A stretch of DNA of 64,000 nucleotides from a virus (lineage: Duplodnaviria; Heunggongvirae; Uroviricota; Caudoviricetes), in the IMG/VR virus record IMGVR_UViG_2700989413_000006, positions 1 to 64,000 of that record; one strand, 5' to 3'. Of the stretch, positions 2,964-48,443 are shown piece by piece. The translations under genes and the position numbers were made by a program. Under the pieces are notes generated by a model. It ran no database searches. It was not told the DNA's origin and was given only the letters and a program-made list of their open reading frames with translations. Position 1 is the stretch's first letter. Every line of letters begins with the position of its first letter.

Positions 2964-3301
2964 GCTGCTTTCTGCTCCGCTTTTTGAATCAATGTGCGGA
3001 GGCGCCAGATATACGTTTGCGAATAGCCATTGTCCGTCTTGATCGGTATTGTTTTGAATCCGCGTGCCTCAGCTTGCGCAACTAGCTTTTTAGCTCTCTC
3101 TAAGCTGCCAATATGCTCTAACGCTGTCTTTGGCTGTGGTAACTTGCCACTCTTGCGTAGCCTTGCAATGTTTGAGTTGATCGTTCCTACAGTTCTGTTC
3201 AGCTCCTTTGCTATTTCAGCAATTGGAGTGTTATTAGAATGTAAGGTGATTAGCTTATTAATTTCACCTGTTGTCCAATAGCGAACCTTTGCAATGCTCA
3301 T
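2960..3301 (-). CDS. GcrA-like DNA-binding regulator
   Basis: N-terminal W-T-x-E...L...IAxxLxRTxxxIxxxIxRLR pattern typical of the GcrA N-terminal domain. 113 aa. Confidence 0.5.
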   Translation of the reverse strand: MSIAKVRYWTTGEINKLITLHSNNTPIAEIAKELNRTVGTINSNIARLRKSGKLPQPKTALEHIGSLERAKKLVAQAEARGFKTIPIKTDNGYSQTYIWRLRTLIQKAEQKAA

Positions 3302-3331
3302 GGCTTGCCCTCCAATGCATCAAAGCGAACT

Positions 3332-3967
3332 CTAATCTTCATTAATGACCTCCTGAGATTTGCCAGCCGTTTTAACCACAATGGAATACACAGGCTCAAA
3401 ATACTCTCGCGTTCCCTCTTCATCTCCCCATTTGTACCCACCGTAATGCAAAGCTTCCACTGTTGATTGCGGCATTTTCTTAGGAATTGCGACATACCCA
3501 TCTGGAATTTGTTTTGCATTATTAATCTGTGCATACAAATCTTGTCTTTCATCAAGCAATTCAGTGATTCGATCTTGAAGTTGTCCAACTTTAAAATCTT
3601 TTGATCTGTTTAATCTTTTTTCTTCAGCCAGTTCATCTAACAAGGAATCAATTTGTCGATAAAGGTTTTTCCAGTATTTATTAGGGTTTTCGTCATGATC
3701 TTTAAGAACCTCCCTAATTAATTGTTCTATATCTTCATCTGACATAAACTCCTTGTCACCGTTCGCTTTTTGCTCTGTAAGCTGTCTGTTAATCTCAGCG
3801 TCCAGCAAATCACGGGTTGATGGGTGGCCAACCTTCTCACCTACCAGATACCGCAAGCGTTCATTTTCAGCCTGCAACTCAATCAACTCGCACGGCGTAC
3901 CATGTCGACCGTCATGAAAGCCTGCTTTGTACGCTGCCTCTTTTATTTCTATTTGTTCATTCATCAC
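3332..3967 (-). CDS. Hypothetical protein (charged, coiled-coil-like)
   Basis: 211-aa ORF. Confidence 0.4.
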   Translation of the reverse strand: MMNEQIEIKEAAYKAGFHDGRHGTPCELIELQAENERLRYLVGEKVGHPSTRDLLDAEINRQLTEQKANGDKEFMSDEDIEQLIREVLKDHDENPNKYWKNLYRQIDSLLDELAEEKRLNRSKDFKVGQLQDRITELLDERQDLYAQINNAKQIPDGYVAIPKKMPQSTVEALHYGGYKWGDEEGTREYFEPVYSIVVKTAGKSQEVINED

Positions 3968-4404
3968 ATTAAGCCTTCTACAAAATCTCTAACTTCTTCA
4001 AAAACGTCAGTTCTAATGGAGTGTTCTATGCTTACGTTTTCTTCATACAGCCTTTGCTCTTCATTGAAGCCGTCTCTGCAAAACTTGAGAACCTTCTCTA
4101 GTGCCGACATCGCTGAACTAGGAATGGGTTGAGCGTCTATACTTTCCACGTCAACAACAATGATGTTTTGCACGTCGTAATCTCTTAGTACTTCATCCAG
4201 AAGCGATACAGTCAAATCACTTGAACCTGCAAGTATGCTAGAAAAAATCTCTATACGATCTTCATTGGATAGCGTGTTAAGCTTCTCTTCATCGCGAAAG
4301 AACGCCATGAAGTCATCACGATTAAATGTGTCAGTCTGCATTTGTTTAACTCTTGAAAACTTTCTTAAATTAATGATATTGAAAGTTTTTTGGATATTGC
4401 GCAT
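3964..4404 (-). CDS. Hypothetical protein
   Basis: 146-aa ORF, overlaps the upstream stop by 4 nt. Confidence 0.4.
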   Translation of the reverse strand: MRNIQKTFNIINLRKFSRVKQMQTDTFNRDDFMAFFRDEEKLNTLSNEDRIEIFSSILAGSSDLTVSLLDEVLRDYDVQNIIVVDVESIDAQPIPSSAMSALEKVLKFCRDGFNEEQRLYEENVSIEHSIRTDVFEEVRDFVEGLM

Positions 4405-4440
4405 TGGGGGTTAAGTTGCCAATGCGCAAAGCTTTATGCC

Positions 4441-5067
4441 TTAACCTGTGTACGGCTCAAGTTGCACATCGAAAACTTTCATTTCGAAATCCAACTCATC
4501 TGGAGTAAAGAAGTGTTCACTGTAAAGCCGGGCAGCTTCCGCCTGTGTTTCAGCCTTAATTTGAACTATCGCTGACGCTTTAAATTGCCACGTTGGTATT
4601 TTTGGCTCTTCAAGCGTAACGGGTCTGTTTGCAAACAATTTCATGTCATGCGATGCGTTCGAGTCATCCAAAAACTTAACTACAGTTCGGTCTTCGCTGA
4701 GTTCGACAGTTTGGAATTGATCTACTATTGCCCAGTTATGCCCATCGCCATCAATGAGTTGAATAAGCCTAATTTCAGTTTCAGGACTAGGGCCTAGCAA
4801 ATTTTTACTCCACTTGATCGTCTCTGAGCCAACGGTGCCATAATCTGCCTGTTTTAATGCCTGCCAAAGTTTCATTATTGGTCCAACCTTTGTAATGCTC
4901 ACTTCATCGTATATGCCTGAGTAAAAACCTTCCTCAAGAACAATCTTAATCGGTCCTTCCGCGTAGGTTTCATCTTCCAAATACTCACGCGCCTGTTGAA
5001 GCGTGTCGACGGTCTTTTCGCCACAACGTTGTGTGTCTTTTTCAATCCATTTAACTAAATATGGCAT
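4441..5067 (-). CDS. Hypothetical protein
   Basis: 208-aa ORF. Confidence 0.4.
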   Translation of the reverse strand: MPYLVKWIEKDTQRCGEKTVDTLQQAREYLEDETYAEGPIKIVLEEGFYSGIYDEVSITKVGPIMKLWQALKQADYGTVGSETIKWSKNLLGPSPETEIRLIQLIDGDGHNWAIVDQFQTVELSEDRTVVKFLDDSNASHDMKLFANRPVTLEEPKIPTWQFKASAIVQIKAETQAEAARLYSEHFFTPDELDFEMKVFDVQLEPYTG

Positions 5068-5143
5068 TTATCCTTCCACCTCTATCGCTTCAGGATCTAT
5101 CGTCCCGTCTAAATTTGTGTTGCTTGTTTCTGTGCCTAAATCA

Positions 5144-5662
5144 TTAATCTGCTTCATTGCTCATTACCTTTTCTGCAATGCTTTTCTTCAATACCTTGCG
5201 GGCTTGTCTCATTGCGTATTTAGCTCTACTGTCACAATGATGGTTCGCTAAATAGCGGTTATCGGTTAATTTCGTATGACCTTTAACGTGTCGACATCTG
5301 AGCTTTAGTTCATACATTTTGGCGGTGTCTAATATGTGATTTAGAACAACTGCAATGTCAGGACGAACCTTGCACTTACCGCTAAGGCAGAAGAGAACAC
5401 CCTCGTTGTCTACTTGAATTAAAACCTCATCACCTTTTGAGATAAGCCCGGCATTGATAGACGCCTGCAAAGAGTTAGCTACGCCTTTAAATTCCGCCTC
5501 GTAGCTGTCTTTAACAACGCCTTTAATAATGTTCCCACCCGCACGTTTGCCTCTGTCTGACGCGCACCAGTATCCAAACCCAGCGGCGCCAGTTTTGTGA
5601 CAAAGCGAGGCATCAGTCATTAATGTCACTAGCATAAGAGTGGTCCAACTCTTCAAAAACAA
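5144..5662 (-). CDS. RNase H (RNase HI-like)
   Basis: Catalytic pattern TDAS...E...D(N)EG...VKGH...N...D aligns with E. coli RNase HI residues D10/E48/D70/H124/D134. True start is probably an internal Met. Confidence 0.65.
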   Translation of the reverse strand: MFLKSWTTLMLVTLMTDASLCHKTGAAGFGYWCASDRGKRAGGNIIKGVVKDSYEAEFKGVANSLQASINAGLISKGDEVLIQVDNEGVLFCLSGKCKVRPDIAVVLNHILDTAKMYELKLRCRHVKGHTKLTDNRYLANHHCDSRAKYAMRQARKVLKKSIAEKVMSNEAD

Positions 5663-24510: not shown

Positions 24511-26901
24511 TTATTGGCAACTTTCGCAATCAGGCTCGAAAATCGAACACAATTTGGCTTGTTGGTGAGCTTCTGCATCACTCAATGTCGCCCCTTGAGC
24601 CACTGCTGATTTCAATGCTTCAATGACGTCATCTTTTGCCGATGCTGAATCTTTGGTAGCTGATTGGCCACGTAGGTAGTAAGTGGTCTTCAAACCCTTG
24701 CGGTGAGCTTCGGTGTAAATGAGGTCTAAGTCTCTACCAGTTGTTCCTTGCTTAGCGAACAAGTTAGTTGATTGAGACTGACAGATCCATTTTTGTCGAA
24801 CAGCTGCGGCTTTAATAATCCATAGCTGATCAACATAGAACGCCTCTTTAAGTAAGTGATAGTTTGTTCCAACATGACGCACCGATGGGTCAATCACTTT
24901 GTACACGCCACCTAAGTTCGTTTTATAGAACTGAAGCAGGAATGGCACTTCTGTGCATTGGGTTGTACCGGCAATGTTTGAGATCGTTGCCGTTGGTGCA
25001 ATTGCCATGATGTTTGAGTTGCGCATGCCTTTCTTGACTTTCTCGCGCAAGGCTTCCCAATCGAAACGACGTGGGCGATCAAAGAAAGGCTTGCCATCTT
25101 CCATCTTCTTAGCAGTGTCAATTGGCAAGATGCCTTGTGACCACTTAGAACCTTCAAATGAAGGATATGACCCAAGCTCTTGCGCTAGATCTGCTGAGGC
25201 TTCAATTGCAAAGTAAGAAATTGCCTCAAACAATGCGTCTGCTTGTTCAAGATGTTGATCACTTTCAAAATCTACACCTTGTTTTACTAGCCACTCGTAA
25301 TAACCCATTACACCTAAACCAATTGGGCGGTGACGAAGGTTAGAGAGTTTGGCGCGTTCTGATGGGTAGTAGTTTACGTCAATCACCGAGTCGAGATTTC
25401 GGATGGCCAAACGAACTGCTGTACGCAATTTTTCTAATGGATTATCGCCCGACATTACAACGGCTAGGTTGATTGAGCCAAGATTACAAACAGCTGTTTC
25501 TTCTTTAGATGTATTTAGCGTGATTTCGGTACACAAGTTACTGTGGTGAATTACCCCCACATGCGACTGAGGGTTACGGCGGTTACTCTCGTCTTTGAAT
25601 GTAATCCACGGGTGGCCCGTTTCAAACAAGTTAGAAAGAATATGACGCCACACTTTAATTGCAGGCAATTGGAACTCAAATTCACCAAGCGCTTCAAGCT
25701 CTTCATAACGGGCTTCAAATTCTTCGCCATACAACTCATGAAGCTCAGGGAATTTATGCGGAGAGAAGAACGACCACATTGCTTCCGGGTCTTCTTTGCG
25801 TTTCATTAACAAATCAGGAACCCAAGCGGCAGGGAATACATCATGCGCACGAAGTCGGTCATCACCAGCTTCCTTCTTGAGTTCACAGAAGGACATGAAA
25901 TCAGGATGCCAAGATTCAAGATAAGGCGCCACAGAACCTTTACGTTTACCGCCTTGATTTACCGCGACAGCTGTATTGTTTTGAACTTTGATGTAAGGCA
26001 CAACACCGCTAGAGATACCATTTGTACCAATGATGATTTCATTTTCACCACGCACAGGTGTCCAATCTGTGCCGATACCACCAGCAAACTTAGACAATAA
26101 AGCTGTTTCTTCAATGGCTCCAAAGATTGAAGCATAACGACTGTCACCAAGTTCGGCTGTGATCGTGTCTGATACTTGGTTTAAGTAACAGCTAGACAAC
26201 TGAGGGCGTAATGTACCGGCATTGAAAAGCGTTGGTGTTGAAGAGATATAGTTCAAAGTTGAATACATTTCATAGTATTCAAGAGCGCGCGCCGTGCGGT
26301 TTTCAGGCTTTTCTTTAATTGCGACACCCATTGCTACACGCATCCAGAAATGTTGCGGCAATTCGATAATTTCACCTGAAGTTTTACCAGTCGCTTTTTC
26401 GTACTTAACATCGCGATTTTTGCGAATAAAGTAACGGTCTTTTAGAGTATCTAGTCCTAAATAACCAAACAGCAAATCACGCTCTGGCTTGATTGCGGCA
26501 TTAATTCTATCTAGGTCGTAGCTTTGCAATAAAGCAGGGTCGAGAAGGTTGCAAGAAACACCCCCCTGAATGTAATCCTTAATGTGAGGATATTTAAAAC
26601 CACCACCATCGACCTTTCCTTGCTCGCCGCATACAAGTTTGTATAAATCTAAGAGCAATAAGCGAGCCGCTACAAATGAAGCATCTGTCATGGTTGCAGA
26701 AGTTAGTTTAGATGCTGCGCTAATTAAAGCTTCTTGAATGTCGCTTGTTTTAATACCGTCATAGATAAGCATAATTGCATTATCAATAACTAATTGAGGT
26801 GGCACGTTTGTGTTTTTTGTGGCCCAAATTACCGCTTTCTCAATTTTTTCTTGAGAAAAAGGCTCCGTAGAGCCGTTGCGTTTGGTTACACGGTTGGTCA
26901 T
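24511..26901 (-). CDS. nrdA: Ribonucleotide reductase class Ia alpha subunit with an N-terminal ATP cone
   Basis: 796 aa. N-terminal ATP-cone-like VTKRNGS..EPF..EKI, catalytic Cys/Asn/Glu region, C-terminal CxxC tail (CESCQ). Confidence 0.85.
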   Translation of the reverse strand: MTNRVTKRNGSTEPFSQEKIEKAVIWATKNTNVPPQLVIDNAIMLIYDGIKTSDIQEALISAASKLTSATMTDASFVAARLLLLDLYKLVCGEQGKVDGGGFKYPHIKDYIQGGVSCNLLDPALLQSYDLDRINAAIKPERDLLFGYLGLDTLKDRYFIRKNRDVKYEKATGKTSGEIIELPQHFWMRVAMGVAIKEKPENRTARALEYYEMYSTLNYISSTPTLFNAGTLRPQLSSCYLNQVSDTITAELGDSRYASIFGAIEETALLSKFAGGIGTDWTPVRGENEIIIGTNGISSGVVPYIKVQNNTAVAVNQGGKRKGSVAPYLESWHPDFMSFCELKKEAGDDRLRAHDVFPAAWVPDLLMKRKEDPEAMWSFFSPHKFPELHELYGEEFEARYEELEALGEFEFQLPAIKVWRHILSNLFETGHPWITFKDESNRRNPQSHVGVIHHSNLCTEITLNTSKEETAVCNLGSINLAVVMSGDNPLEKLRTAVRLAIRNLDSVIDVNYYPSERAKLSNLRHRPIGLGVMGYYEWLVKQGVDFESDQHLEQADALFEAISYFAIEASADLAQELGSYPSFEGSKWSQGILPIDTAKKMEDGKPFFDRPRRFDWEALREKVKKGMRNSNIMAIAPTATISNIAGTTQCTEVPFLLQFYKTNLGGVYKVIDPSVRHVGTNYHLLKEAFYVDQLWIIKAAAVRQKWICQSQSTNLFAKQGTTGRDLDLIYTEAHRKGLKTTYYLRGQSATKDSASAKDDVIEALKSAVAQGATLSDAEAHQQAKLCSIFEPDCESCQ

Positions 26902-26946
26902 TTTGTTTCCTTGTTGCGTTACGTTGTGTGGCTTTCGCCACGAGAA

Positions 26947-35214: not shown

Positions 35215-36711
35215 TTATTTATCGGACTTGGGTAAGAAAGCTTTTAACTGCTCCATGCCATTAGGTTCTGCGTTTAACTTGGCTACAAGCTCTTTGACAA
35301 AGTACTTCTTGCCATCTGTCCATGTAACACGAGGCTTGTTGTATTCAATCCAACCGCGCTTAATTAAATGATCAAGCATAGCGGCGATATGATCGAAGTA
35401 AGCCACATCAAATTCGTTGTACATCATGCGTAAATTGCACTCTTGGAACGGTCGAGTGAATTTTGTTTTGACGCATTGAACGGTAATGTTTTGGCCCACA
35501 AATTCCTTTTCACCAACTTCGTCTTTGTCCATGATTTTTTGACGACCTAAAGCCAAGCGTGCAGAAGCGTAAAACTCCATTGCTTTTCCGCCTGGTGTGC
35601 AGTTGTGAACAATGAAGCCATTGTCTTTGTTGCCCGCAAGGAAGTTGTGATTGCCCTCAATGGTAATGTCATACATGCGGGTGTCTAACTTCTTACCGCC
35701 TTCGCGAACCTCTGTGACGACAGCATAGGCGGTTTTGTGCTTATGAGTAACAAGGTGATAGCCAACCTTCACATCCTCTGCGTTAATCCAGCCACACTCG
35801 CGAGTAAGAATTTTGTGATCGTTTGTTGCTGTAACCGCAGATACGCCATTCTTCGTTTCAGGTGTAGTTGCTCGAATGTGAATCCAACGCTTGTCGGTAT
35901 CAGCGATAGAGCCATTGTCATGCCAATCAACGATAAATTTAGGCTCAATTTCACCTGTTGTTTCGTTGTATGACCACACTTCCTTGTTGATCTTGTTCTT
36001 AACGATTTCCTTGATTGTTGCAGTTGTGCCATCAACAAAGGGAATTTGAACGTCACCACGTAAACAGCGAGGATCACCAAACATAACACCCGGCTTTAAG
36101 CGCATTTGGTTGAGATATACGAATGTCGCGCTAAACTCTTCAGCTCGGTGACTCATGGTTTTTAACGTAGAAGACGTTACACGAGCCAGCGCCGTAGTGT
36201 CATTCATGGTGTATTCATCAATTTCTTTGCCAGCTTGCGATTTAGGTAATGCAGCAGCAATAGAGTCAAATACAACTAAAATTGGCGCATCATCAGGAAT
36301 AGCTTTAGATGCACGAATTAACTGGCACGCTTTAGCGGCAAGTGTGTTTCCTTCCTCCCATGTTGCAGGCTTCGCGTAAATCCAATATGGACGCTGTGTG
36401 TTAAGACCGAACCCTTCAGCCAAACGAACATCGAAAGAGCGTTCCCAGTCAATGAAGATTGCACAGCCACCCATTTTCTGAGCGCGAACCATCCATTCAG
36501 TAGCGTCAGCAGTTTTACCAGTAGATGATTCGCCAAATACTTCAACCATTCGACCAAATGGCAAACCGCCTTCGTAGCTTCCTGAAATAATGCGGTTTAA
36601 TTCAGGGTTGCCCGTATCAATCCAACGAGTGACCGCTTGTTCTGCATGGTTATCACCGATTGCTTTGAATAATGCGTCATTTAGTGCGTCGATTTGTGCT
36701 TGTGCTGTCAT
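35215..36711 (-). CDS. recA: RecA-family recombinase interrupted by a mini-intein in the L2 DNA-binding loop
   Basis: GGLPFGRMVEVFGESSTGKT, AIFIDWE, LNQMRLKPGVMFGDPR | intein | CTPGGKAMEFYASARL align colinearly with E. coli RecA ([32 protein letters not shown]). Probable start at the ATG at 36709-36711. Confidence 0.85.
   Translation of the reverse strand: MTAQAQIDALNDALFKAIGDNHAEQAVTRWIDTGNPELNRIISGSYEGGLPFGRMVEVFGESSTGKTADATEWMVRAQKMGGCAIFIDWERSFDVRLAEGFGLNTQRPYWIYAKPATWEEGNTLAAKACQLIRASKAIPDDAPILVVFDSIAAALPKSQAGKEIDEYTMNDTTALARVTSSTLKTMSHRAEEFSATFVYLNQMRLKPGVMFGDPRCLRGDVQIPFVDGTTATIKEIVKNKINKEVWSYNETTGEIEPKFIVDWHDNGSIADTDKRWIHIRATTPETKNGVSAVTATNDHKILTRECGWINAEDVKVGYHLVTHKHKTAYAVVTEVREGGKKLDTRMYDITIEGNHNFLAGNKDNGFIVHNCTPGGKAMEFYASARLALGRQKIMDKDEVGEKEFVGQNITVQCVKTKFTRPFQECNLRMMYNEFDVAYFDHIAAMLDHLIKRGWIEYNKPRVTWTDGKKYFVKELVAKLNAEPNGMEQLKAFLPKSDK
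35602..36066 (-). mobile_element. 155-aa mini-intein (no homing-endonuclease domain) within recA
   Basis: Starts with Cys (CLRGD, block A), has a TxxH block B (TATNDH) and ends ...FIVHN followed by the +1 Cys. Boundary codons checked at 36064-36066 (TGT) and 35602-35604 (AAC). Confidence 0.8.
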
Positions 36712-36721
36712 GTCTTTAATC

Positions 36722-37786
36722 TCAATTAGTTTGTGTCGGTAATGCTTGTTTGAACGGTTGAACAAAGTTATCAATTACGTTCAAAATGGATGCGAAGTTC
36801 AGCTCCGCGCATATGTCAATGAACTTGTCTAAGTCAAAGTTGCCTTTGTCTATTTCAAGGTGTTGCTTCTCTAAAGGATGTGGGTTGATCAGCTGCATGA
36901 TTTTCATATTTCGAATGAAGATCGAACGACCTTGACCGATATATGCGTCCATGTGTTTTTTCAGCTGTTTCTTGTGTTCCTTCTCGTTCTCTTCGTCACT
37001 TAGAGAGTCGTCACGTTGATAATGGAATAAGTTTTTCCATTGCTCTTTCGTGTAGGGAGAAGTGCCTTTCCACAATGAGCGTTGAGCTTTATTGGCTGGT
37101 TTAATTTCGCCACTTTCGCAACGTTGAATGAATTTACCAACCGAACCATGTTCAGCTAGAAATAACGGCGCTGTTGCTTCACCAATACCGCCAACTCCCG
37201 GTATGCAGTCAGAAGAATCGCCTTGAAGAGCTTTGCCCTCCAAAAACGCTAGTGGAGTTTTATAGCCAGTCTTTTCAACAAAATTTTCAAAGGTAATAAC
37301 CTTCTCATTTCGTTTGTCACGCAAATCTTGCCAACGCACACCACGACGTATGAGTTGCACCCAATCTACGTCGCCTGACGCAAGTAAGATTTCTTGATCT
37401 GGATTTTTCATGATTTGCTTTACTAAGATTCCAGCTAAGTCATCAGCTTCATGAATGTATGAAAGAATCTGCGTAATGCCTAAAGCAGATAGAGCCGCTT
37501 TGATAAACGGTAACTGCGCTTTGTAAGCTTCTTTATCAGCGACCTTTTCAGGTGTATCAGCAACGCGCTTAATTTTGTATTCAGGGCACATATCAAAGCG
37601 AAATTGAGCTTTTCCATCCCATAGCACATAGATTGTTGCTAACGGGTTGCGGATGCGTAATTCGCGCACTGTACGAAGAAAACCGTACACTGCCTGAGTT
37701 TGCATAACACCCGAATGCAGTTTTGTAGCGTGATGAGCTGCGTAACCAATAGAGTTCGCATCAATTAAAATCGTTAAATGTGGCAT
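36722..37786 (-). CDS. 5'-3' exonuclease / flap endonuclease (Pol I 5'-exo / T4 RNase H family)
   Basis: LIDANSIGYAAHHA N-terminal acidic cluster and H3TH-like region. GAGGG SD upstream of the ATG at 37786. Confidence 0.8.
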   Translation of the reverse strand: MPHLTILIDANSIGYAAHHATKLHSGVMQTQAVYGFLRTVRELRIRNPLATIYVLWDGKAQFRFDMCPEYKIKRVADTPEKVADKEAYKAQLPFIKAALSALGITQILSYIHEADDLAGILVKQIMKNPDQEILLASGDVDWVQLIRRGVRWQDLRDKRNEKVITFENFVEKTGYKTPLAFLEGKALQGDSSDCIPGVGGIGEATAPLFLAEHGSVGKFIQRCESGEIKPANKAQRSLWKGTSPYTKEQWKNLFHYQRDDSLSDEENEKEHKKQLKKHMDAYIGQGRSIFIRNMKIMQLINPHPLEKQHLEIDKGNFDLDKFIDICAELNFASILNVIDNFVQPFKQALPTQTN

Positions 37787-40071: not shown

Positions 40072-43000
40072 TCAACTTAATACTTCAGCCACTTTTTCAA
40101 AGGCTAAAGTAAGGTCTGGTAATTTTGAAGGGTCAAACGGTAATTGAGCTGGACTAATCCCGCATACGATTGTTGCATCAAGCGTTGGGTCATAAACCGC
40201 TGTAGCATTCAGTTCTGATATTCCACCTTTAACCGACGGTAAGAACTTTTTGGCCACCGAAGATCCTAGCGCAACAATAATGCTCGGTTTTACGAGTTTT
40301 ATCTCTTCTTCCAAGTACTTACTACAGTTGTTAATCTGCGAGTTAGTAAGAAACTTATCTGATTTACGCGCTTTCACCATAGTTGTGTAATAACCATCAC
40401 TAGGATTTAAGCCAGCGTCTTTAATTGCCTGTTTAAGATAAGTTGAGACATCACCGACCATAAGTTTGTCTTGTTTGTCCTCATCGACGTTAGGACAATC
40501 TGTGACAACCATAAACTTAACTTTGTTACCACAGCGCATAGTAGGGTGCTTTTTACCTTTCAAATCACAAGCGTCACACTGTTTGTATTCTTGAGCCACC
40601 ATAATGATGCGACTCTTTAAATGCTGCTCGGTTAGATCAGCAACACGGTCAGCTTTTACAGTATCAATGATAATGCCGGGCAATAAGTCCATTTGAGCCT
40701 TGCGACGGTCGACGTGTCGTGCAGGTAATTGAGTAGGCTCAACACTCGCTAAAGCGCCAATTGCATTAAGCGATTCAACCACTTTGCTGTTTACCTTTGT
40801 TTTAGGCTGTGCTGCTGCTTCTTGGAACTCAAAGAGACTATCAAAACGTTTTTTAATTGGCGCATCGTCGTCATAGCCCCAAACGGGTGTTTTGTCGCGT
40901 TTATACTTAACAATCTTCAAGTCACGATGCTTTTCGCGTAATTTCACAATAGCGCGCGCCGTTGTCTCTGACACACCCTTTACAGCGTTAAAAGGTGCAA
41001 GAATGTTGTGATTGTCTAAAATGGTGTAACGATCAGAAGATAAGTTAATATCGGGCGGCAATACTTCGATACCGCATTCGCGCGCATCCTTTACCAACCC
41101 CTTCAATTTGTCTACGATTGATAAAGAGGCTGCGAAATACTCAGCAGGGTAGTGGACACGAACGTATGCACACCATACCGAGATAATCGAATAAGCCGTT
41201 GCGTGACTTTTGTTGAAACCATAGCCAGCAAAGGCTTCGATCTTGTCAAAGATGCGACCGGCTTCTCCTGGTTCTACTCCTGATTTAGCAACGGCGCCAT
41301 CAATGAACTTTTGACGCATTTTAGCCATTTCATCTACATTCTTTTTACCCATTGCTTTACGGAGTTTATCCGCTTCAGCATTTGTAAAACCTGCAAAATC
41401 CACAGAGACTTTCATTACCTGTTCTTGATAGATTATGACGCCTAGCGTGTCTTTGAGTGCTTCAACCATATTAGGATGATCGTAACTTACTGAACGCATA
41501 CCCTGACGCGTAGCAACATAATCATCTAAAAGTCCTGAATCCATCGGACCCGGACGATACAACGCGGTTGCAGCTGAAATATCATCAAAGGTCATTGAAC
41601 CGCCTTTCGCAATATCTTTAAGCAGCTGCTTCATGCCTCCTGATTCAAACTGGAACACGCCCGTAGTATTACCGTTTGCGAAAGCTTGCAATGTTTTTGG
41701 GTCATCTAATGGAATTTCTAAGTAATTTAGATAAATACCATGACGTTCTTTAATATAATCACGGGCGATATTCAGCGTATCTAAAGTGGACAAACCGAGT
41801 AAGTCCATTTTGACCAAACCGCAATCTTCTACAACGCGTTTATCCCAATTGACCACAGTGTCTTCAGATCTTCGCTCTAATACAGCGCGATTCACAATCG
41901 GCTCACCTGCAACAACAATACCGGCAGCGTGTTGGCCAAATGACTTCATTGTGCCTGCAAGTTTGACCGCGTGCTTCCAGATCTCAGGATGTGCTTTTTT
42001 AAATTTCTCTAATTCAGGAACCGCTTTAGCTGACTCTTCCAAAGACATTGTTTGGCCATGATCTTTGAGTACGAATTTTGAAGCTGTGAGTTCAAGAGGT
42101 GTTAAACCACTTAGACGACCAACATCACGTAGCGCTGACGCAGAGGCTAAGGTCGAATAGTTGGAAATACCCGCTACGTAGTCTTTACCGTATTTATCAA
42201 TCAAATACTCAACGACCTTATGACGACGTGAAGAGGCAAAGTCCAAGTCAGCATCGGGTAAGTCTAAACGTTCAGGGTTAATAAAACGCTCAAAGATCAA
42301 ACCGAATCGAATTGGATCGACGTCGGCAATACCGATTAGATACGCAACAAGTGAACCATTAACCGAACCACGTCCCGGACCTACAATCACACCATTGTTT
42401 TTCGCCCATGTAACAAGGTCTTCAACCATAAGGAAGTAAGATTCAAAACCCATGTTTTTAAGCGTTTTTAACTCATAGCCTAAGCGTTCTTTGTAAACGG
42501 TATCGAGTAAATTTTTAGGTGGCAAATAGCCTAAGACGGGCTTGCTAAAACGTTTTTTCCAACCCTCAACGCATAACTCGCACAACTTCTTAAACTCATC
42601 ATTAGCGAGTTTAGGCAATGAAACTGGTTGTTTTTCAAACTTGTACTGGCACTTTTGCACTACTTCTTCGCAGTTCTTAATGCCATTTGTCCAAATTGCA
42701 GTTACCGATTTAGGGTCAAGTACAGTGCGATTAAACTTAATTCCGCGTGCAATAGCAGCTTTAGTGCGGTCTATGATTGCGCTAGGCTCTACAAATGCAA
42801 ATTCCTTAACATACTGACGACTGCGAAAAGGTGCATCTAACTGCGTGTTACTCGCAATGGCACTCATCACATCCATCGTACTAGCGTCTGCATTATCTAA
42901 GTAGCGGAAAGGGTAGGTGACAAGTGGCTTGCAGCCCAATGAGCCAACCAGCTCGATTGCGCGCTTATTCATTTTGTCGAAAAGGGGAGTGTTTATAGGG

Positions 43001-43521
43001 CAAAGTTCCGCATAGAAATCTTCACCAAAACGCGCTTTGAGTTGACGAGCTATATTTTCATAGTCTGGATGACTACACATACCGAACATATCGCCTGTAG
43101 ATATGATGACGTCTTCTAACTCAAGCAAGTCTTTTAAACACGAGCGTGGATTGTAATAAAAGCGCTCTGGAGTATTTGCTTCGGTCAATAGCCTAAGCAG
43201 CCCTTTGAATCCAACCTCAGTCTTCGCGTAAACCTTACAGATAAACGACAGATTTTCTTTAGGAATCTCTTGAGATTGTTTTGTAGGTCGACGGTAGGTA
43301 GGGTCGTCATAAACACGTACACGCACGCCAGCAATTGGTTTTATGCCTTCTTTCTCAGCTTTGTAAGTGAACTGAATTAACGCATGCACGCTCATATCAT
43401 CCACTAAAGCCACCGATTGATAACCCAACTCCTTCGCTTTCTCAATGATATGATCAACTTGAAGCATTGACTGACCAATCGAGAAGTCCGACTGTACGGA
43501 AAGGGCATGATTAATATTCAT
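40072..43521 (-). CDS. dnaE: DNA polymerase III alpha subunit (DnaE-type, PHP + polymerase core + OB)
   Basis: 1149 aa; N-terminal PHP domain, palm/fingers GxxxxDLLG region, and a normal overall length, so no intein. AAGGA SD. Confidence 0.9.
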   Translation of the reverse strand: MNINHALSVQSDFSIGQSMLQVDHIIEKAKELGYQSVALVDDMSVHALIQFTYKAEKEGIKPIAGVRVRVYDDPTYRRPTKQSQEIPKENLSFICKVYAKTEVGFKGLLRLLTEANTPERFYYNPRSCLKDLLELEDVIISTGDMFGMCSHPDYENIARQLKARFGEDFYAELCPINTPLFDKMNKRAIELVGSLGCKPLVTYPFRYLDNADASTMDVMSAIASNTQLDAPFRSRQYVKEFAFVEPSAIIDRTKAAIARGIKFNRTVLDPKSVTAIWTNGIKNCEEVVQKCQYKFEKQPVSLPKLANDEFKKLCELCVEGWKKRFSKPVLGYLPPKNLLDTVYKERLGYELKTLKNMGFESYFLMVEDLVTWAKNNGVIVGPGRGSVNGSLVAYLIGIADVDPIRFGLIFERFINPERLDLPDADLDFASSRRHKVVEYLIDKYGKDYVAGISNYSTLASASALRDVGRLSGLTPLELTASKFVLKDHGQTMSLEESAKAVPELEKFKKAHPEIWKHAVKLAGTMKSFGQHAAGIVVAGEPIVNRAVLERRSEDTVVNWDKRVVEDCGLVKMDLLGLSTLDTLNIARDYIKERHGIYLNYLEIPLDDPKTLQAFANGNTTGVFQFESGGMKQLLKDIAKGGSMTFDDISAATALYRPGPMDSGLLDDYVATRQGMRSVSYDHPNMVEALKDTLGVIIYQEQVMKVSVDFAGFTNAEADKLRKAMGKKNVDEMAKMRQKFIDGAVAKSGVEPGEAGRIFDKIEAFAGYGFNKSHATAYSIISVWCAYVRVHYPAEYFAASLSIVDKLKGLVKDARECGIEVLPPDINLSSDRYTILDNHNILAPFNAVKGVSETTARAIVKLREKHRDLKIVKYKRDKTPVWGYDDDAPIKKRFDSLFEFQEAAAQPKTKVNSKVVESLNAIGALASVEPTQLPARHVDRRKAQMDLLPGIIIDTVKADRVADLTEQHLKSRIIMVAQEYKQCDACDLKGKKHPTMRCGNKVKFMVVTDCPNVDEDKQDKLMVGDVSTYLKQAIKDAGLNPSDGYYTTMVKARKSDKFLTNSQINNCSKYLEEEIKLVKPSIIVALGSSVAKKFLPSVKGGISELNATAVYDPTLDATIVCGISPAQLPFDPSKLPDLTLAFEKVAEVLS

Positions 43522-43552
43522 TACATTCCTTTAGCAATTTAATAAGTAAAAA

Positions 43553-45030: not shown

Positions 45031-46230
45031 TTACCCGAACACTCGCTGCGCAATTCCCTTCACAATTTCGTAATCGCGGGAAGATTGTTTGTTGGCATAA
45101 GCTAAAGAGATACCCGTATTCATAGAGCCGCGCATCACACCTAATTTCGCCGCATAGATTAGAGAGCGCAAAGAAATCGTATCGCTAATTTCTTTATTGC
45201 TATAAGCAGCGCGCACCTTAGTTGCAAACTCAACTAGATTTTTCGCATCTATTGGGTCAATTTGTGTGTGACGTACAATGGCTTTTGCTTCATCTTCTTT
45301 AGACATGTAATGCTTTTCCATCACCATGCCAAAGCGGTCATAGTTCGCCGTGTTTTGAATGGTTGTTCCTGAATACAAACCTGTTTCATCACCCGTACCA
45401 TTGGTGTTACCCGTCGCACAGAAGCGGAAATTTGGATGAGGTTTGATAATGCGATTTTCAGGGTCAGCTTCTTTAATGTTGAGCGGCTTACCTTCCATAA
45501 CAGCTTGATAAACAGACAATACACTTGGCTGCGCAAAGTCATATTCGTCAGCAAGATATAACCAGCCATGCTTCATCGCTAACGCCAACGGCCCAAGTTG
45601 GAAAGTCATGTTTCCATCAACTACAGTCCACATGCCGACGATATGTGCTTCTTCTGTATTGGCGGTGTGCTGAATACGAACGACTGGTCGACCAGTTCTT
45701 GCAGCCACCTGATCAATAAGTTCTGTTTTACCAGTACCTTTGTGGCCCCAAACATAAAAAGGAATATTCAGTTCAAGCGCGATAAGGGTATTTTTCAACA
45801 CATCAATTTCAAAAACGTATGTGTTGTTAATTTCAGGCACCATGTCTGGTGATGATGAGTTCTCAATACAAGATACTGGGATTGGATCACCCTGTGCGTT
45901 TTTACCTTCTGGGCCAGAGATTTCAAAAATTTCATGTAAATTACGCGCAACTAAGGTGTCTTTAGCGACGAACGAACCCGGCTTTTGAATTACCGAACTT
46001 GGTTGAGCTGGCTGAGCTGCCGCTTGTTCTTGAGCCTTTTTCTTCTGCTCTTCCGCTTTCATTCTGATGCGCTCGATTAAAGCTGGCGATTGGGTCGGTG
46101 CATTAGGATAAGAAGATTTATAATTCTTAAAAGTCACCTTTGGGTGATCAGTATTAAGGTGATGAGGTATAGAATGCACTTGAGCTTTACAAATTTCGCA
46201 TGCGATTGTTTCATTTTGATTTACAGTCAT
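45031..46230 (-). CDS. CobS-like / MoxR-like AAA+ ATPase
   Basis: Walker A GHKGTGKTE and Walker B WLYLADEYD; the overall pattern matches phage CobS-like ATPases. Confidence 0.65.
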   Translation of the reverse strand: MTVNQNETIACEICKAQVHSIPHHLNTDHPKVTFKNYKSSYPNAPTQSPALIERIRMKAEEQKKKAQEQAAAQPAQPSSVIQKPGSFVAKDTLVARNLHEIFEISGPEGKNAQGDPIPVSCIENSSSPDMVPEINNTYVFEIDVLKNTLIALELNIPFYVWGHKGTGKTELIDQVAARTGRPVVRIQHTANTEEAHIVGMWTVVDGNMTFQLGPLALAMKHGWLYLADEYDFAQPSVLSVYQAVMEGKPLNIKEADPENRIIKPHPNFRFCATGNTNGTGDETGLYSGTTIQNTANYDRFGMVMEKHYMSKEDEAKAIVRHTQIDPIDAKNLVEFATKVRAAYSNKEISDTISLRSLIYAAKLGVMRGSMNTGISLAYANKQSSRDYEIVKGIAQRVFG

Positions 46231-46312
46231 TTTTTAAATCTCACAAAGATAGATTTTGACAAAACTTTGTCTTTTGAATATGCGTGAATGATACTAATAT
46301 CTTCTAGGAAAA

Positions 46313-46369: not shown

Positions 46370-48427
46370 TTACTTGAGAAGTAATGAGCGAAGCTCGCCA
46401 ATAACCGTGTTAGGTAAGTCGGCAACAGATCTCAAAACGACATTTTTTGGATAGAACTCTTTTACGCTTTGCGTATTGATTCCAATTCCAATAACTTCAA
46501 ATCCTGAGCGAGAAATTTCCTGAACGGTTGTTTTGAGGTGTTTGTTTAGCGTTGGGGTCGGGCCGCTACCATTTGGATTACCATCACTTAACACCATAAT
46601 GATTTTCCGTGCTTCTTTTTGAGCGCTTAGCCGCTGTGCCGCAATTTGAAGACACTCCCCATCAACATTCGTGTTTAAGAACCTAACATGAGGCAACCAT
46701 GCAAAACGATGGCGGTTTTCGAGCGTTAAGCGCTCATTAAACCCTTTAATGACTGGCATATATAAACCTTCCGTTCTTGTGTATCGAATCGTTTTGCCAT
46801 TATGCGTAAAGCTTTCTTTTGCGTGTGGATCACCGTTTTTAGTTGTGAATCCAATAACTTCATGATTAATGTTGAGACGGTCAAGAACAGATGACATTGC
46901 ATATGACGCTTGAGAGGCTGTGTTAATGCGTTCGCCCTTCATTGAACCTGAACAGTCAATTAAGAGGGTTACAGCGACATCTTTGGAACGATTCTCTTGT
47001 TTGCGACGGAATATACGGTCGTCTCTAACAGCTAAACGAGAAAGTGACGCCTGGTTAATTTTTCCTTGCCGTAAACCGTTCTCCCATGTTCTTGCTGATC
47101 GAGCAACCATAAGACGTTCCAAATCTTTTTGAATTGTTCCCGTAATTTTATTGGTTGCTCTATCTAAATCATCCATAAAGGACGATTTGTAATCTCTGCC
47201 AATTTTTAATGTTTCGATAACGTCATATCTGTTTGTATAAACGAGATATGGCGCAGTGCAAGCAAAGTCTTTTGCTTCATTGCTTAACTGAACGGCAAAC
47301 GAGGCGTCAAAATCATTCGCTGACTCCTTGTCGATCTCTTGCAAAATCGCCTTAGCGTCTAAATTAAGCTTTCTTAATTCCTTTTTCTTTTCTGACGTCT
47401 GATTCTCAGAGTCGCTAGACTCGTTGCCTTCATTGCTGTCGCCCTTACCATTCGATTTGTCAGACTTATTTTGGTGGCGCTCACTTTTACCATCTGATTC
47501 GTTCCCACCATCCTCATCTTCGGATTGACCGCCTTTACCTCCATCACCTTGTTCGTCTTGCTCATCAGCATCGCCTGAAGACTCACCGGCACCATCTTCT
47601 TCAGAATCGCCATCATCTCCCTCACCAGCGCCTTGCTGACCGTCTGCATCTGAACCTTCATCTTCGTCAGAATTTCCGCCACCTGAGCCGCCTGGTTGCT
47701 CATCTTCATCTTCGTTAGATTGACCATTTCCTTGTTGATCACATTCTTCTTCCTGTTGTTGATCTTGCGGGGGTTGTTTCTCGTCTTCGGGACTTTTTAG
47801 AGCTTTGTAAATTTCTTTAGCTAAGCGAACGGCATCCTGAGACGACTGCATTGATTGAAGTTGTGGCGCAAGGTGTTTGATGGCAGCATGAATATTTGGC
47901 AACAAATGAATCTTGTCGCGCATATAAATTTCAAAAGTTGATTGACCCGAAAGGCTGCGGAGATATGGAGTGGCCAAGATACCCATAATCTTTGTTTCAT
48001 CAACATCGGGATGCGCCATAACTTCTTTAAATTTCGGAGTAATCATCTCTTCTAAAAAGAAGTGTGCGGTGTGATCTAAGTTAGAACCAGAACCTCTAAA
48101 TTTTTCAGCCATGCATTTTTCGATGCGGGCGTCTTCTAAAATATTTGCGAGACTTTTTAAAAGGTAATCGCCAACGCTATTTAGGGCTTTAAAATCAGAG
48201 AAAAGAACATGTGCAACCTCATGATCTAAGAATCCCTGTATTGCTCTTATAAGTTCTTCTGATGCATTGTCCGAAAGGTACGGTAAATTGATAGAAATCG
48301 GATTTCCATTAATGTCAGACTTGACGTATGCTTCCATACCTATTTGAGTTACTTCAATTTTTTTCTCAATGAGAGCATTTGTGATTGCAACGATAGCGTT
48401 GCGTAAATTAGCAATGCGATTGTTCAT
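46370..48427 (-). CDS. CobT-like VWA-domain protein with a roughly 150-aa acidic low-complexity insertion
   Basis: C-terminal VWA MIDAS motif DCSGSMKGERI; central D/E/G/S/Q-rich region. Confidence 0.6.
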   Translation of the reverse strand: MNNRIANLRNAIVAITNALIEKKIEVTQIGMEAYVKSDINGNPISINLPYLSDNASEELIRAIQGFLDHEVAHVLFSDFKALNSVGDYLLKSLANILEDARIEKCMAEKFRGSGSNLDHTAHFFLEEMITPKFKEVMAHPDVDETKIMGILATPYLRSLSGQSTFEIYMRDKIHLLPNIHAAIKHLAPQLQSMQSSQDAVRLAKEIYKALKSPEDEKQPPQDQQQEEECDQQGNGQSNEDEDEQPGGSGGGNSDEDEGSDADGQQGAGEGDDGDSEEDGAGESSGDADEQDEQGDGGKGGQSEDEDGGNESDGKSERHQNKSDKSNGKGDSNEGNESSDSENQTSEKKKELRKLNLDAKAILQEIDKESANDFDASFAVQLSNEAKDFACTAPYLVYTNRYDVIETLKIGRDYKSSFMDDLDRATNKITGTIQKDLERLMVARSARTWENGLRQGKINQASLSRLAVRDDRIFRRKQENRSKDVAVTLLIDCSGSMKGERINTASQASYAMSSVLDRLNINHEVIGFTTKNGDPHAKESFTHNGKTIRYTRTEGLYMPVIKGFNERLTLENRHRFAWLPHVRFLNTNVDGECLQIAAQRLSAQKEARKIIMVLSDGNPNGSGPTPTLNKHLKTTVQEISRSGFEVIGIGINTQSVKEFYPKNVVLRSVADLPNTVIGELRSLLLK

Positions 48428-48443
48428 AATAGATCCTTAGCGA

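Follow-up and report, generated by a model that had tools for sequence, protein, structure and literature searches.

A class 1 mini-intein in loop L2 of a phage-type RecA recombinase encoded by phage-like plasmids of Acinetobacter baumannii

In the 64,000-nucleotide stretch of DNA analysed here (the window), the minus strand carries a complete recA-like coding sequence that is interrupted, in frame, by an intein. The features of the locus are listed below. Intein residues are numbered from its first cysteine, +1 denotes the first residue of the C-extein and slashes in sequences mark junctions.

35215..36711, minus strand: complete recA-like coding sequence for the intein-containing precursor (498 aa, 55.9 kDa), ATG at 36711, stop codon at 35215-35217
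36067..36711, minus strand: N-extein, aa 1-215, C-terminal end ...KPGVMFGDPR, aligned to E. coli RecA up to E207 and colinear with the intein-free protein P0012
36511-36534, minus strand: Walker A motif of the N-extein, G60-ESSTGK-T67
35602..36066, minus strand: mini-intein of 155 aa (precursor aa 216-370, 17.5 kDa, CLRGD...GFIVHN), identified with Pfam, TIGRFAM, an AF2 model, Foldseek and a profile search against PDB
36064..36066, minus strand: block A, Cys1 (TGT), the N-terminal splicing nucleophile, invariant in an alignment of 20 intein sequences (A1)
35815..35826, minus strand: block B, T81-N-D-H84 (ACA AAC GAT CAC), a TxxH motif with T81 and H84 invariant in A1
35731..35736, minus strand: endonuclease-deletion scar between K111 and T112 (AAA/ACC), located by codon alignment with locus L007
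35602..35670, minus strand: blocks F and G, from D133 (in MYDITIE) to H154-N155 (CAC AAC), the C-terminal splicing residues, with D133, H154 and N155 invariant in A1
35602-35604, minus strand: AAC codon of Asn155
35599..35601, minus strand: Cys+1 (TGC), first residue of the C-extein and second nucleophile, placed by codon alignment of the window with loci L005, L007 and L008
35218..35601, minus strand: C-extein, aa 371-498, first residues CTPGGKAMEFYASARL, aligned to E. coli RecA from T208 on and colinear with P0012

The precursor is identical to WP_000126617.1, a 498-aa protein that carries the PGAP name 'recombinase'. It scores 132 bits against Pfam RecA (cut-off 27) and matches the UvsX-like recombinase family PHROG 97 with an E-value of 1e-81; its reading frame is open, and the Walker A motif and the other RecA motifs are present. 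Against NCBIfam TIGR02012, the equivalog model for chromosomal RecA, it stays below the cut-off (134 bits vs 325), which reflects a phage UvsX/RecA-like lineage that it shares with intein-free relatives. We conclude that the gene product is a phage-type RecA-family recombinase and not a chromosomal RecA. Among phages, Pseudomonas phage nickie and the SSU5-type phages have the RecA proteins most similar to it (~40% identity), and a megablast search of the phage collection with the recA-like gene gave no match. A longer open reading frame starting from TTG at 36774 was rejected, since it overlaps the upstream 5'-3' exonuclease gene and both the homologues and the RefSeq protein start at the ATG.

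Class 1 inteins are defined by Cys or Ser as first residue, a TxxH motif in block B, an aspartate in block F, a terminal His-Asn pair and Cys, Ser or Thr at position +1. All of these features are present in the insert and its flank, with cysteine at both the first position and +1. A sequence-only reading of this DNA had proposed a 155-aa class 1 mini-intein in the open reading frame 35215-36711, bounded by TGT at 36064-36066 and AAC at 35602-35604, and this proposal held in each of its parts. Both boundary codons were found on the DNA, the insert is contained in the 498-aa translation, and a colinear intein-free allele lacks exactly these 155 residues. When searched alone, the 155-aa segment scored 41.4 bits against the Pfam model Intein_splicing (PF14890; cut-off 35.8) and 29.6 bits against TIGR01443 intein_Cterm (cut-off 15.6), which matched the C-terminal region of the intein; these scores are far above chance. 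The segment consists of splicing blocks only; the stretch from block B to block F contains no homing endonuclease, and the 200 extra codons of its full-length relatives are missing. Near block B it has an additional cysteine, Cys91, which its closest relatives do not have.

The sequence-only reading had also tied its assignment to a Hint fold, and this similarity was found. A profile built from 20 intein relatives retrieved PI-MtuI, the M. tuberculosis RecA intein, from PDB with an E-value of 6e-13. AF2 modelling of the intein with the 20-sequence alignment gave a pLDDT of 94.4 and a pTM of 0.88; the model rests on this alignment, since prediction from the single sequence was unusable (pLDDT 38). 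Foldseek returned 56 PDB matches for the model at E<=1e-3, of which the best 50 were all intein or Hint domains, and the top matches represent the splicing domain of the Mtu RecA intein (E 4e-10, TM 0.78-0.88), led by 3IGD and 3IFJ (TM 0.79-0.88, rmsd 1.9-2.4 Å). Model and structural matches therefore place the insert in the horseshoe-shaped, beta-rich Hint fold of class 1 inteins.

As the sequence-only reading had stated, the exteins are colinear with E. coli RecA. In a PDB sequence search, query residues 31-217 and 371-452 aligned to adjacent stretches, R215 pairing with E. coli E207 (Mtb residue 208) and C371 with T208. We take loop L2 of RecA to comprise residues 195-209 by established numbering, and since the flanks are contiguous at E207/T208, the insert lies inside this loop. 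The junction in the window reads GVMFGDPR/C...HN/CTPGG. In every sampled protein with an intein at site b, the M. leprae-type site (~90 proteins), it reads GVMFG/C...HN/SPETT instead, which corresponds to G204/N205 of E. coli and to 205/206 of mycobacterial RecA, with Ser at +1. Within RecA filaments, loop L2 makes contact with the DNA, and it is a known intein insertion site, M. leprae recA included (Taylor et al. 2011, PMC3239194). Five insertion points, a to e, have been distinguished for RadA/RecA inteins (Topilina et al. 2015, NAR 43:6631, PMC4513877); Table 1 of this survey assigns the M. leprae intein to b (206-570), that of M. tuberculosis to a (252-691), the RecA inteins of E. coli, Enterobacter and Salmonella to c2 (65-486), and those of A. 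baumannii ABNIH1 (F9IG70) and IS-143 (K1ED71) to d (216-370). The boundaries found here, aa 216-370, coincide with the tabulated point d. By published coordinates, PDB alignment to Mtb RecA and comparison with the sampled site-b proteins, the intein of the window is thus assigned to insertion point d, 3 residues downstream of site b. The sequence-only reading, which had pointed to an M. leprae-type location, was right about the loop, while the exact site is d (E207/T208) and not b (G204/N205).

The A. baumannii site-d intein of the 2015 table agrees with that of the window in species, protein family, residues 216-370 and length of 155 aa, and the intein had therefore already been catalogued; judged by the listed coordinates, the two sequences are very probably identical. 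Its anatomy is that of a textbook class 1 intein. The survey groups it with bacterial RecA inteins, and its passages considered here mention neither a plasmid or phage location nor an endonuclease deletion nor a kinship with site-b inteins. The present analysis adds the location on a phage-plasmid, the derivation through a 600-bp deletion of the endonuclease, the series of alleles and the relationship to the site-b inteins.

The proposal that the window represents a phage or plasmid element proved correct, as the precursor is 100% identical in 27 A. baumannii plasmids of ~105-114 kb in PLSDB, all of them phage-like. In one of these, from strain AR_0056, resistance genes flanked by IS26 are present. 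Acinetobacter plasmids with this intein family number 138 in PLSDB; 111 carry the endonuclease (pABTJ2 type) and 27 the mini form. These counts come from an endonuclease-domain query, which found the 111 plasmids, and an intein query, which matched as one uninterrupted 465-nt stretch in the 27 window-type plasmids. Upstream of recA lie, in this order, genes for a DnaE carrying a UDG domain at its C terminus, a gp32-like SSB and a 5'-3' exonuclease, and the neighbourhood further includes Mre11/Rad50-like proteins, RNR, ThyX, dUTPase, ligase, a DnaB-like helicase, primase, RepB and ParA. Members of the pABTJ2 family are phage-like plasmids whose structural genes resemble those of Salmonella phage SSU5 (PMC4411360), and judged by its genes, the neighbourhood matches this family. 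No tRNA genes were found in the window. When the ORFs of all six frames were scanned with HMMs, the recA-like gene was the sole match, and no second intein was detected. Inteins in DnaE, NrdA, DnaB, ligase or the Rad50-like protein were rejected, as Pfam scans of these proteins showed no Hint domain; the earlier statement that DnaE, NrdA and DnaB hide none is in line with both scans.

Three allelic states occur at one and the same codon boundary, namely intein-free alleles (proteins of 333-360 aa), inteins of 355-363 aa and mini-inteins of 155-165 aa. The states were assigned by a homologue search with the full-length protein followed by pairwise mapping; a word-indexed search with the 155-aa intein alone yielded one fragment only. 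Loci in all three states are syntenic, with L005 and L006 empty, L007 carrying a full-length intein of 355 aa, and L008 (A. brisouii) and the window carrying mini-inteins. The closest intein-free allele, P0012 at locus L005, encodes 343 aa with 88% extein identity and is colinear with the window protein minus exactly the 155 intein residues. Its empty site reads GDPR/TTPGG in the protein and GGTGACCCGCGT / ACTACACCAGGC in the DNA, so that the +1 codon of intein-free alleles specifies Thr (ACT), vs Cys (TGC) in the window. The central 200 residues of the full-length relatives match I-SceI at 8e-8 and Pfam LAGLIDADG_2. Exactly 200 codons of L007 have no counterpart in the window; the gap falls between K111 and T112 and keeps the frame, and the codon alignment reveals a short microhomology, AAAC, at the deletion junction. 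The deletion end points differ among the five mini-inteins of this family, and we therefore count at least three, possibly five, independent endonuclease losses.

Between the window and L007, the splicing part of the intein is 87% identical in nucleotides and 91% in amino acids, with a dN/dS of 0.07, whereas the exteins are 68% and 76% identical, respectively, and their dN/dS is not computable because dS is saturated, as it is in most extein comparisons. Against L008 the dN/dS of the splicing domain is 0.10, and against the empty allele L005 that of the exteins is 0.06. The splicing domain is under strong purifying selection. Selection of this kind would arise with any host gene of importance, and it gives no indication whether splicing is constitutive or regulated. 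That the intein is more conserved than its host gene (87% vs 68% nucleotide identity) suggests past homing, by which the intein would have passed from one recA allele to another when the host genes were already divergent.

In an exhaustive HMMER search, the 155-aa intein matched 842 representative proteins at E <= 1e-3, and in nearly all of the best 150 of these 842 the intein sits in the L2 region of a RecA-like recombinase. The junctions are staggered along the loop, at V201/M202, G204/N205 (site b, the majority), P206/E207, E207/T208 (site d) and T208/T209 in E. coli numbering. A rough NJ tree groups the site-d inteins with Cys+1 into one clade, with three inteins from the V201/M202 site nested inside, and scatters those site-d inteins in which +1 is Thr or Ser among the site-b inteins. 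This suggests that one homologous intein lineage has shifted its insertion point repeatedly within L2, a pattern that we treat as a lead only, as the tree carries no support values. The sampled site-b inteins, which are metagenomic, are homologous to the intein of the window, with 40-49% identity in the splicing blocks and a common CL[RH]xD start and GxxVHN end. The M. leprae intein shares loop L2 with that of the window (PMC3239194), but it is inserted 3 residues upstream, is followed by Ser rather than Cys at +1 and is full length with 365 aa.

PI-MtuI, the best match in both the profile and the structural search of PDB, is likewise a class 1 intein with Cys1 and Cys+1. It is nevertheless only 25-28% identical to the intein of the window and is inserted ~45 residues downstream, at VKVVKNK/C (Mtb residue 252 according to the tabulated coordinates), a junction that also occurs in the proteins P0283 and P0287. 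Its mini forms were made in the laboratory (structures 2IMZ, 3IFJ and 3IGD), whereas the mini-intein of the window arose naturally. The best 120 matches of a homologue search with Mtb RecA were intein-free or site-a (Mtb-type) proteins only. Like the intein of the window, the tabulated c2 inteins of E. coli, Enterobacter and Salmonella (65-486) reside in the RecA-like gene of SSU5-type phage-plasmids, and we found an intein of this type in RecA of the SSU5-like phage Cyrano (779 aa; GPPSAGK/C...SHN/T, from residue 65). The c2 inteins, however, interrupt Walker A instead of L2, and they are different inteins, with a full-length endonuclease and Thr at +1.

We consider it probable, at about 85%, that the window encodes a splicing-competent class 1 mini-intein, derived from a LAGLIDADG intein, in the recA-like gene of an A. 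baumannii phage-like plasmid of the SSU5/pABTJ2 type. This reading draws on the anatomy and fold of the insert, its conserved catalytic residues, the series of empty, full and mini alleles and the purifying selection on the splicing domain. The intein would have arrived as a ~355-aa element with an I-SceI-like LAGLIDADG homing endonuclease, the target of which would have been the empty site, and a 600-bp in-frame deletion would later have taken out the endonuclease. Having lost it, the copy cannot home alone and is passed on with the plasmid. In the proposed pathway, a 55.9-kDa precursor would be translated with the 17.5-kDa Hint domain in L2, between the equivalents of E207 and T208. An N-S acyl shift at Cys1 would be followed by trans-thioesterification to Cys+1, cyclisation of Asn155 assisted by His154, and an S-N acyl shift. 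The predicted products are a 38.5-kDa RecA and the free 17.5-kDa intein. Loop L2 of the mature protein would be intact and read GVMFGDPR-CTPGG, with Cys instead of the Thr of intein-free alleles. As L2 contacts DNA, we infer that the precursor would be inactive until it has spliced. In the literature searched, we found no splicing experiments on this intein, which the 2015 survey, as far as its table goes, only lists. According to a review (PMC5874633), the RecA intein of M. leprae, likewise in L2, undergoes splicing in mycobacteria yet fails to do so in E. coli, and this makes host dependence a real caveat for the intein of the window.

There is an outside chance that the endonuclease-less intein has been kept as a post-translational switch, with the recombinase inactive until splicing responds to redox state, metal or DNA damage. 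Splicing would then be held back by a disulfide between Cys1 and Cys+1 or Cys1 and Cys91, by zinc or by extein contacts until a signal arrives, for example DNA damage, ssDNA or a reducing environment, and the plasmid RecA would be activated post-translationally; we regard this as unlikely. The two nucleophiles are both cysteines, with the lineage-specific Cys91 lying near block B, and an intein that blocks the DNA-contacting loop L2 should render the precursor inactive (PMC3239194). There are also precedents. DnaB inteins are under zinc and oxidation control, and the exteins control the intein of Pyrococcus horikoshii RadA (c1), a natural mini-intein in a RecA-family recombinase that the 2015 survey, in the part concerned with this protein, presents as a model for extein-controlled conditional splicing (PMC4513877). 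The P. horikoshii intein is archaeal and lies in the P-loop, and it is a distant structural match to that of the window (TM 0.6-0.7). In at least three lineages the splicing domain also outlasted the endonuclease and was kept intact, but retention of a splicing-competent domain after such a loss is the default for inteins in needed genes. Moreover, Cys91 is not conserved in the relatives, and nothing in the sequence demonstrates regulation.

Far less probable is a decaying intein that no longer splices, leaving either a recA that is inactive or impaired, or a RecA in which the domain inserted in L2 is permanent and has acquired another role. Loss of the endonuclease is a step on the usual path of degeneration, and the noncommittal PGAP name and the failed NCBIfam equivalog cut-off could be taken in the same sense. 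The latter, however, is explained by the phage lineage of the protein, and decay is at odds with catalytic residues that are all intact and invariant, with dN/dS values of 0.07-0.10 in the splicing domain and 0.06 in the exteins, with an open frame in which the RecA motifs are preserved, and with a deletion that is exactly in frame and removed the endonuclease module alone. We give practically no credence to a BIL or other Hint domain that cleaves without ligation, for which a weak Pfam PT-HINT match (24.4 bits, below the 27.7 cut-off) and BIL domains lower down the Foldseek list could be cited, given that the C-terminal junction is the canonical HN/C with a block G matching TIGR01443, that the insertion site and the protein around it are both conserved and colinear alleles lack the intein, that its closest relatives contain a homing endonuclease and that true inteins are its best structural matches.

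If the intein did act as a switch, splicing would time the recombination-dependent replication or repair of the phage-plasmid. For the mini-intein as we read it, the significance lies in the allele series and in its carriers. The public annotation as 'recombinase' masks both the RecA identity of the protein and its intein, and the carriers are plasmids of clinical A. baumannii. With its predicted splicing activity, the intein offers protein engineering a natural 155-aa mini-intein of the Cys/Cys type. The phage-like plasmids of this one family, ~105-115 kb in size, show at a single codon boundary sites that are empty, inteins that bear the endonuclease and mini-inteins of at least three independent origins, and this clean natural allele series makes the plasmid family convenient for studying the intein homing cycle.

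Among the best 150 of the 842 representative proteins matched by the window intein (P0122-P0268), the junctions are staggered along loop L2 of RecA over at least five positions, which lie 2, 3, 4, 6 and 9 residues ahead of the conserved GG. At site b, the M. leprae-type point, the +1 residue in this set of 150 is Ser; at site d, the position occupied in the window, it is Cys, Thr or Ser. The same 150 best matches also contain numerous independent mini forms, with approximately 17 at site b and approximately 10 at site d.

A LAGLIDADG intein homologous to that of the window was found at another L2 position in seven relatives (P0034, P0041, P0076, P0121, P0122, P0123 and P0124), where the junction reads KPGV|C[LV]R...VHN|[CS]YGDP and corresponds to E. 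coli V201|M202, six residues upstream of site d and three residues upstream of site b. Topilina 2015 (PMC4513877) lists five RecA/RadA insertion points, a-e, and the V201|M202 position is absent from that list. In a neighbour-joining tree, which carries no support values, three of the V201|M202-site inteins fall within the site-d clade.

Shortened inteins of approximately 185-200 aa were also detected in two actinobacterial RecA proteins of the mycobacterial type, P0283 (547 aa) and P0287 (534 aa), at M. tuberculosis site a (VKVVKNK|CLAEGTRIFD...VVVHN|C). The M. tuberculosis RecA intein comprises 440 aa; these two represent natural deletions of part of the PI-MtuI endonuclease region.

The window intein itself contains a second cysteine:

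35794-35796 (-), intein residue Cys91, within TRECGW, seven residues past block B

The nearest inteins have His or Lys at this position (TREHGW, SGKGW), and Cys91 could be relevant to redox behaviour or else be neutral.

Two further genes of the window are of note:

40075-43530 (-), DnaE-type polymerase III alpha subunit, ~1150 aa, with a C-terminal uracil-DNA glycosylase (UDG) superfamily domain
46373-48436 (-), CobT-like VWA protein, 688 aa, adjoining a ~400-aa ORF at 45034-46233 (-)

The UDG superfamily domain (PF03167) spans residues ~1003-1134 of DnaE, and the fusion is also present in the syntenic empty-site (L006) and full-length-intein (L007) loci. At the spot matching the ~400-aa ORF, the related plasmid NZ_CP026705.1 of A. 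baumannii AR_0056 has a gene that RefSeq annotates as an AAA family ATPase. On two stretches of this plasmid, L009 and L010, we also noted the following:

L010 94580-95119, Hfq-like RNA chaperone, the plasmid's own copy, adjoining a DnaB-like helicase
L009 9227-9439 and 25551-25970, HicA and Doc toxins

In AR_0056 (L009 15323-24452), IS26 copies flank aph(3')-Ia and msr(E)-mph(E), directly downstream of the nrdA CDS annotated there; at 2175 nt (~724 aa), this CDS is shorter than the 811-codon NrdA reading frame in the window (24514-26946). One phage-plasmid backbone thus occurs both with a resistance island and lacking one.

A P-loop intein was found in an SSU5-like phage:

L001 (OV696614.1) 2983-5322, Escherichia phage Cyrano RecA, 779 aa

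Its intein of approximately 420 aa interrupts Walker A (GPPSAGK|C...SHN|T) with residue 65 as its first, in agreement with the E. coli RecA inteins given as "c2 (65-486)" in Topilina 2015 (PMC4513877). Because the Cyrano intein is of the c2 type, the "bacterial" c2 RecA inteins of that survey are probably carried by phage-plasmids as well.
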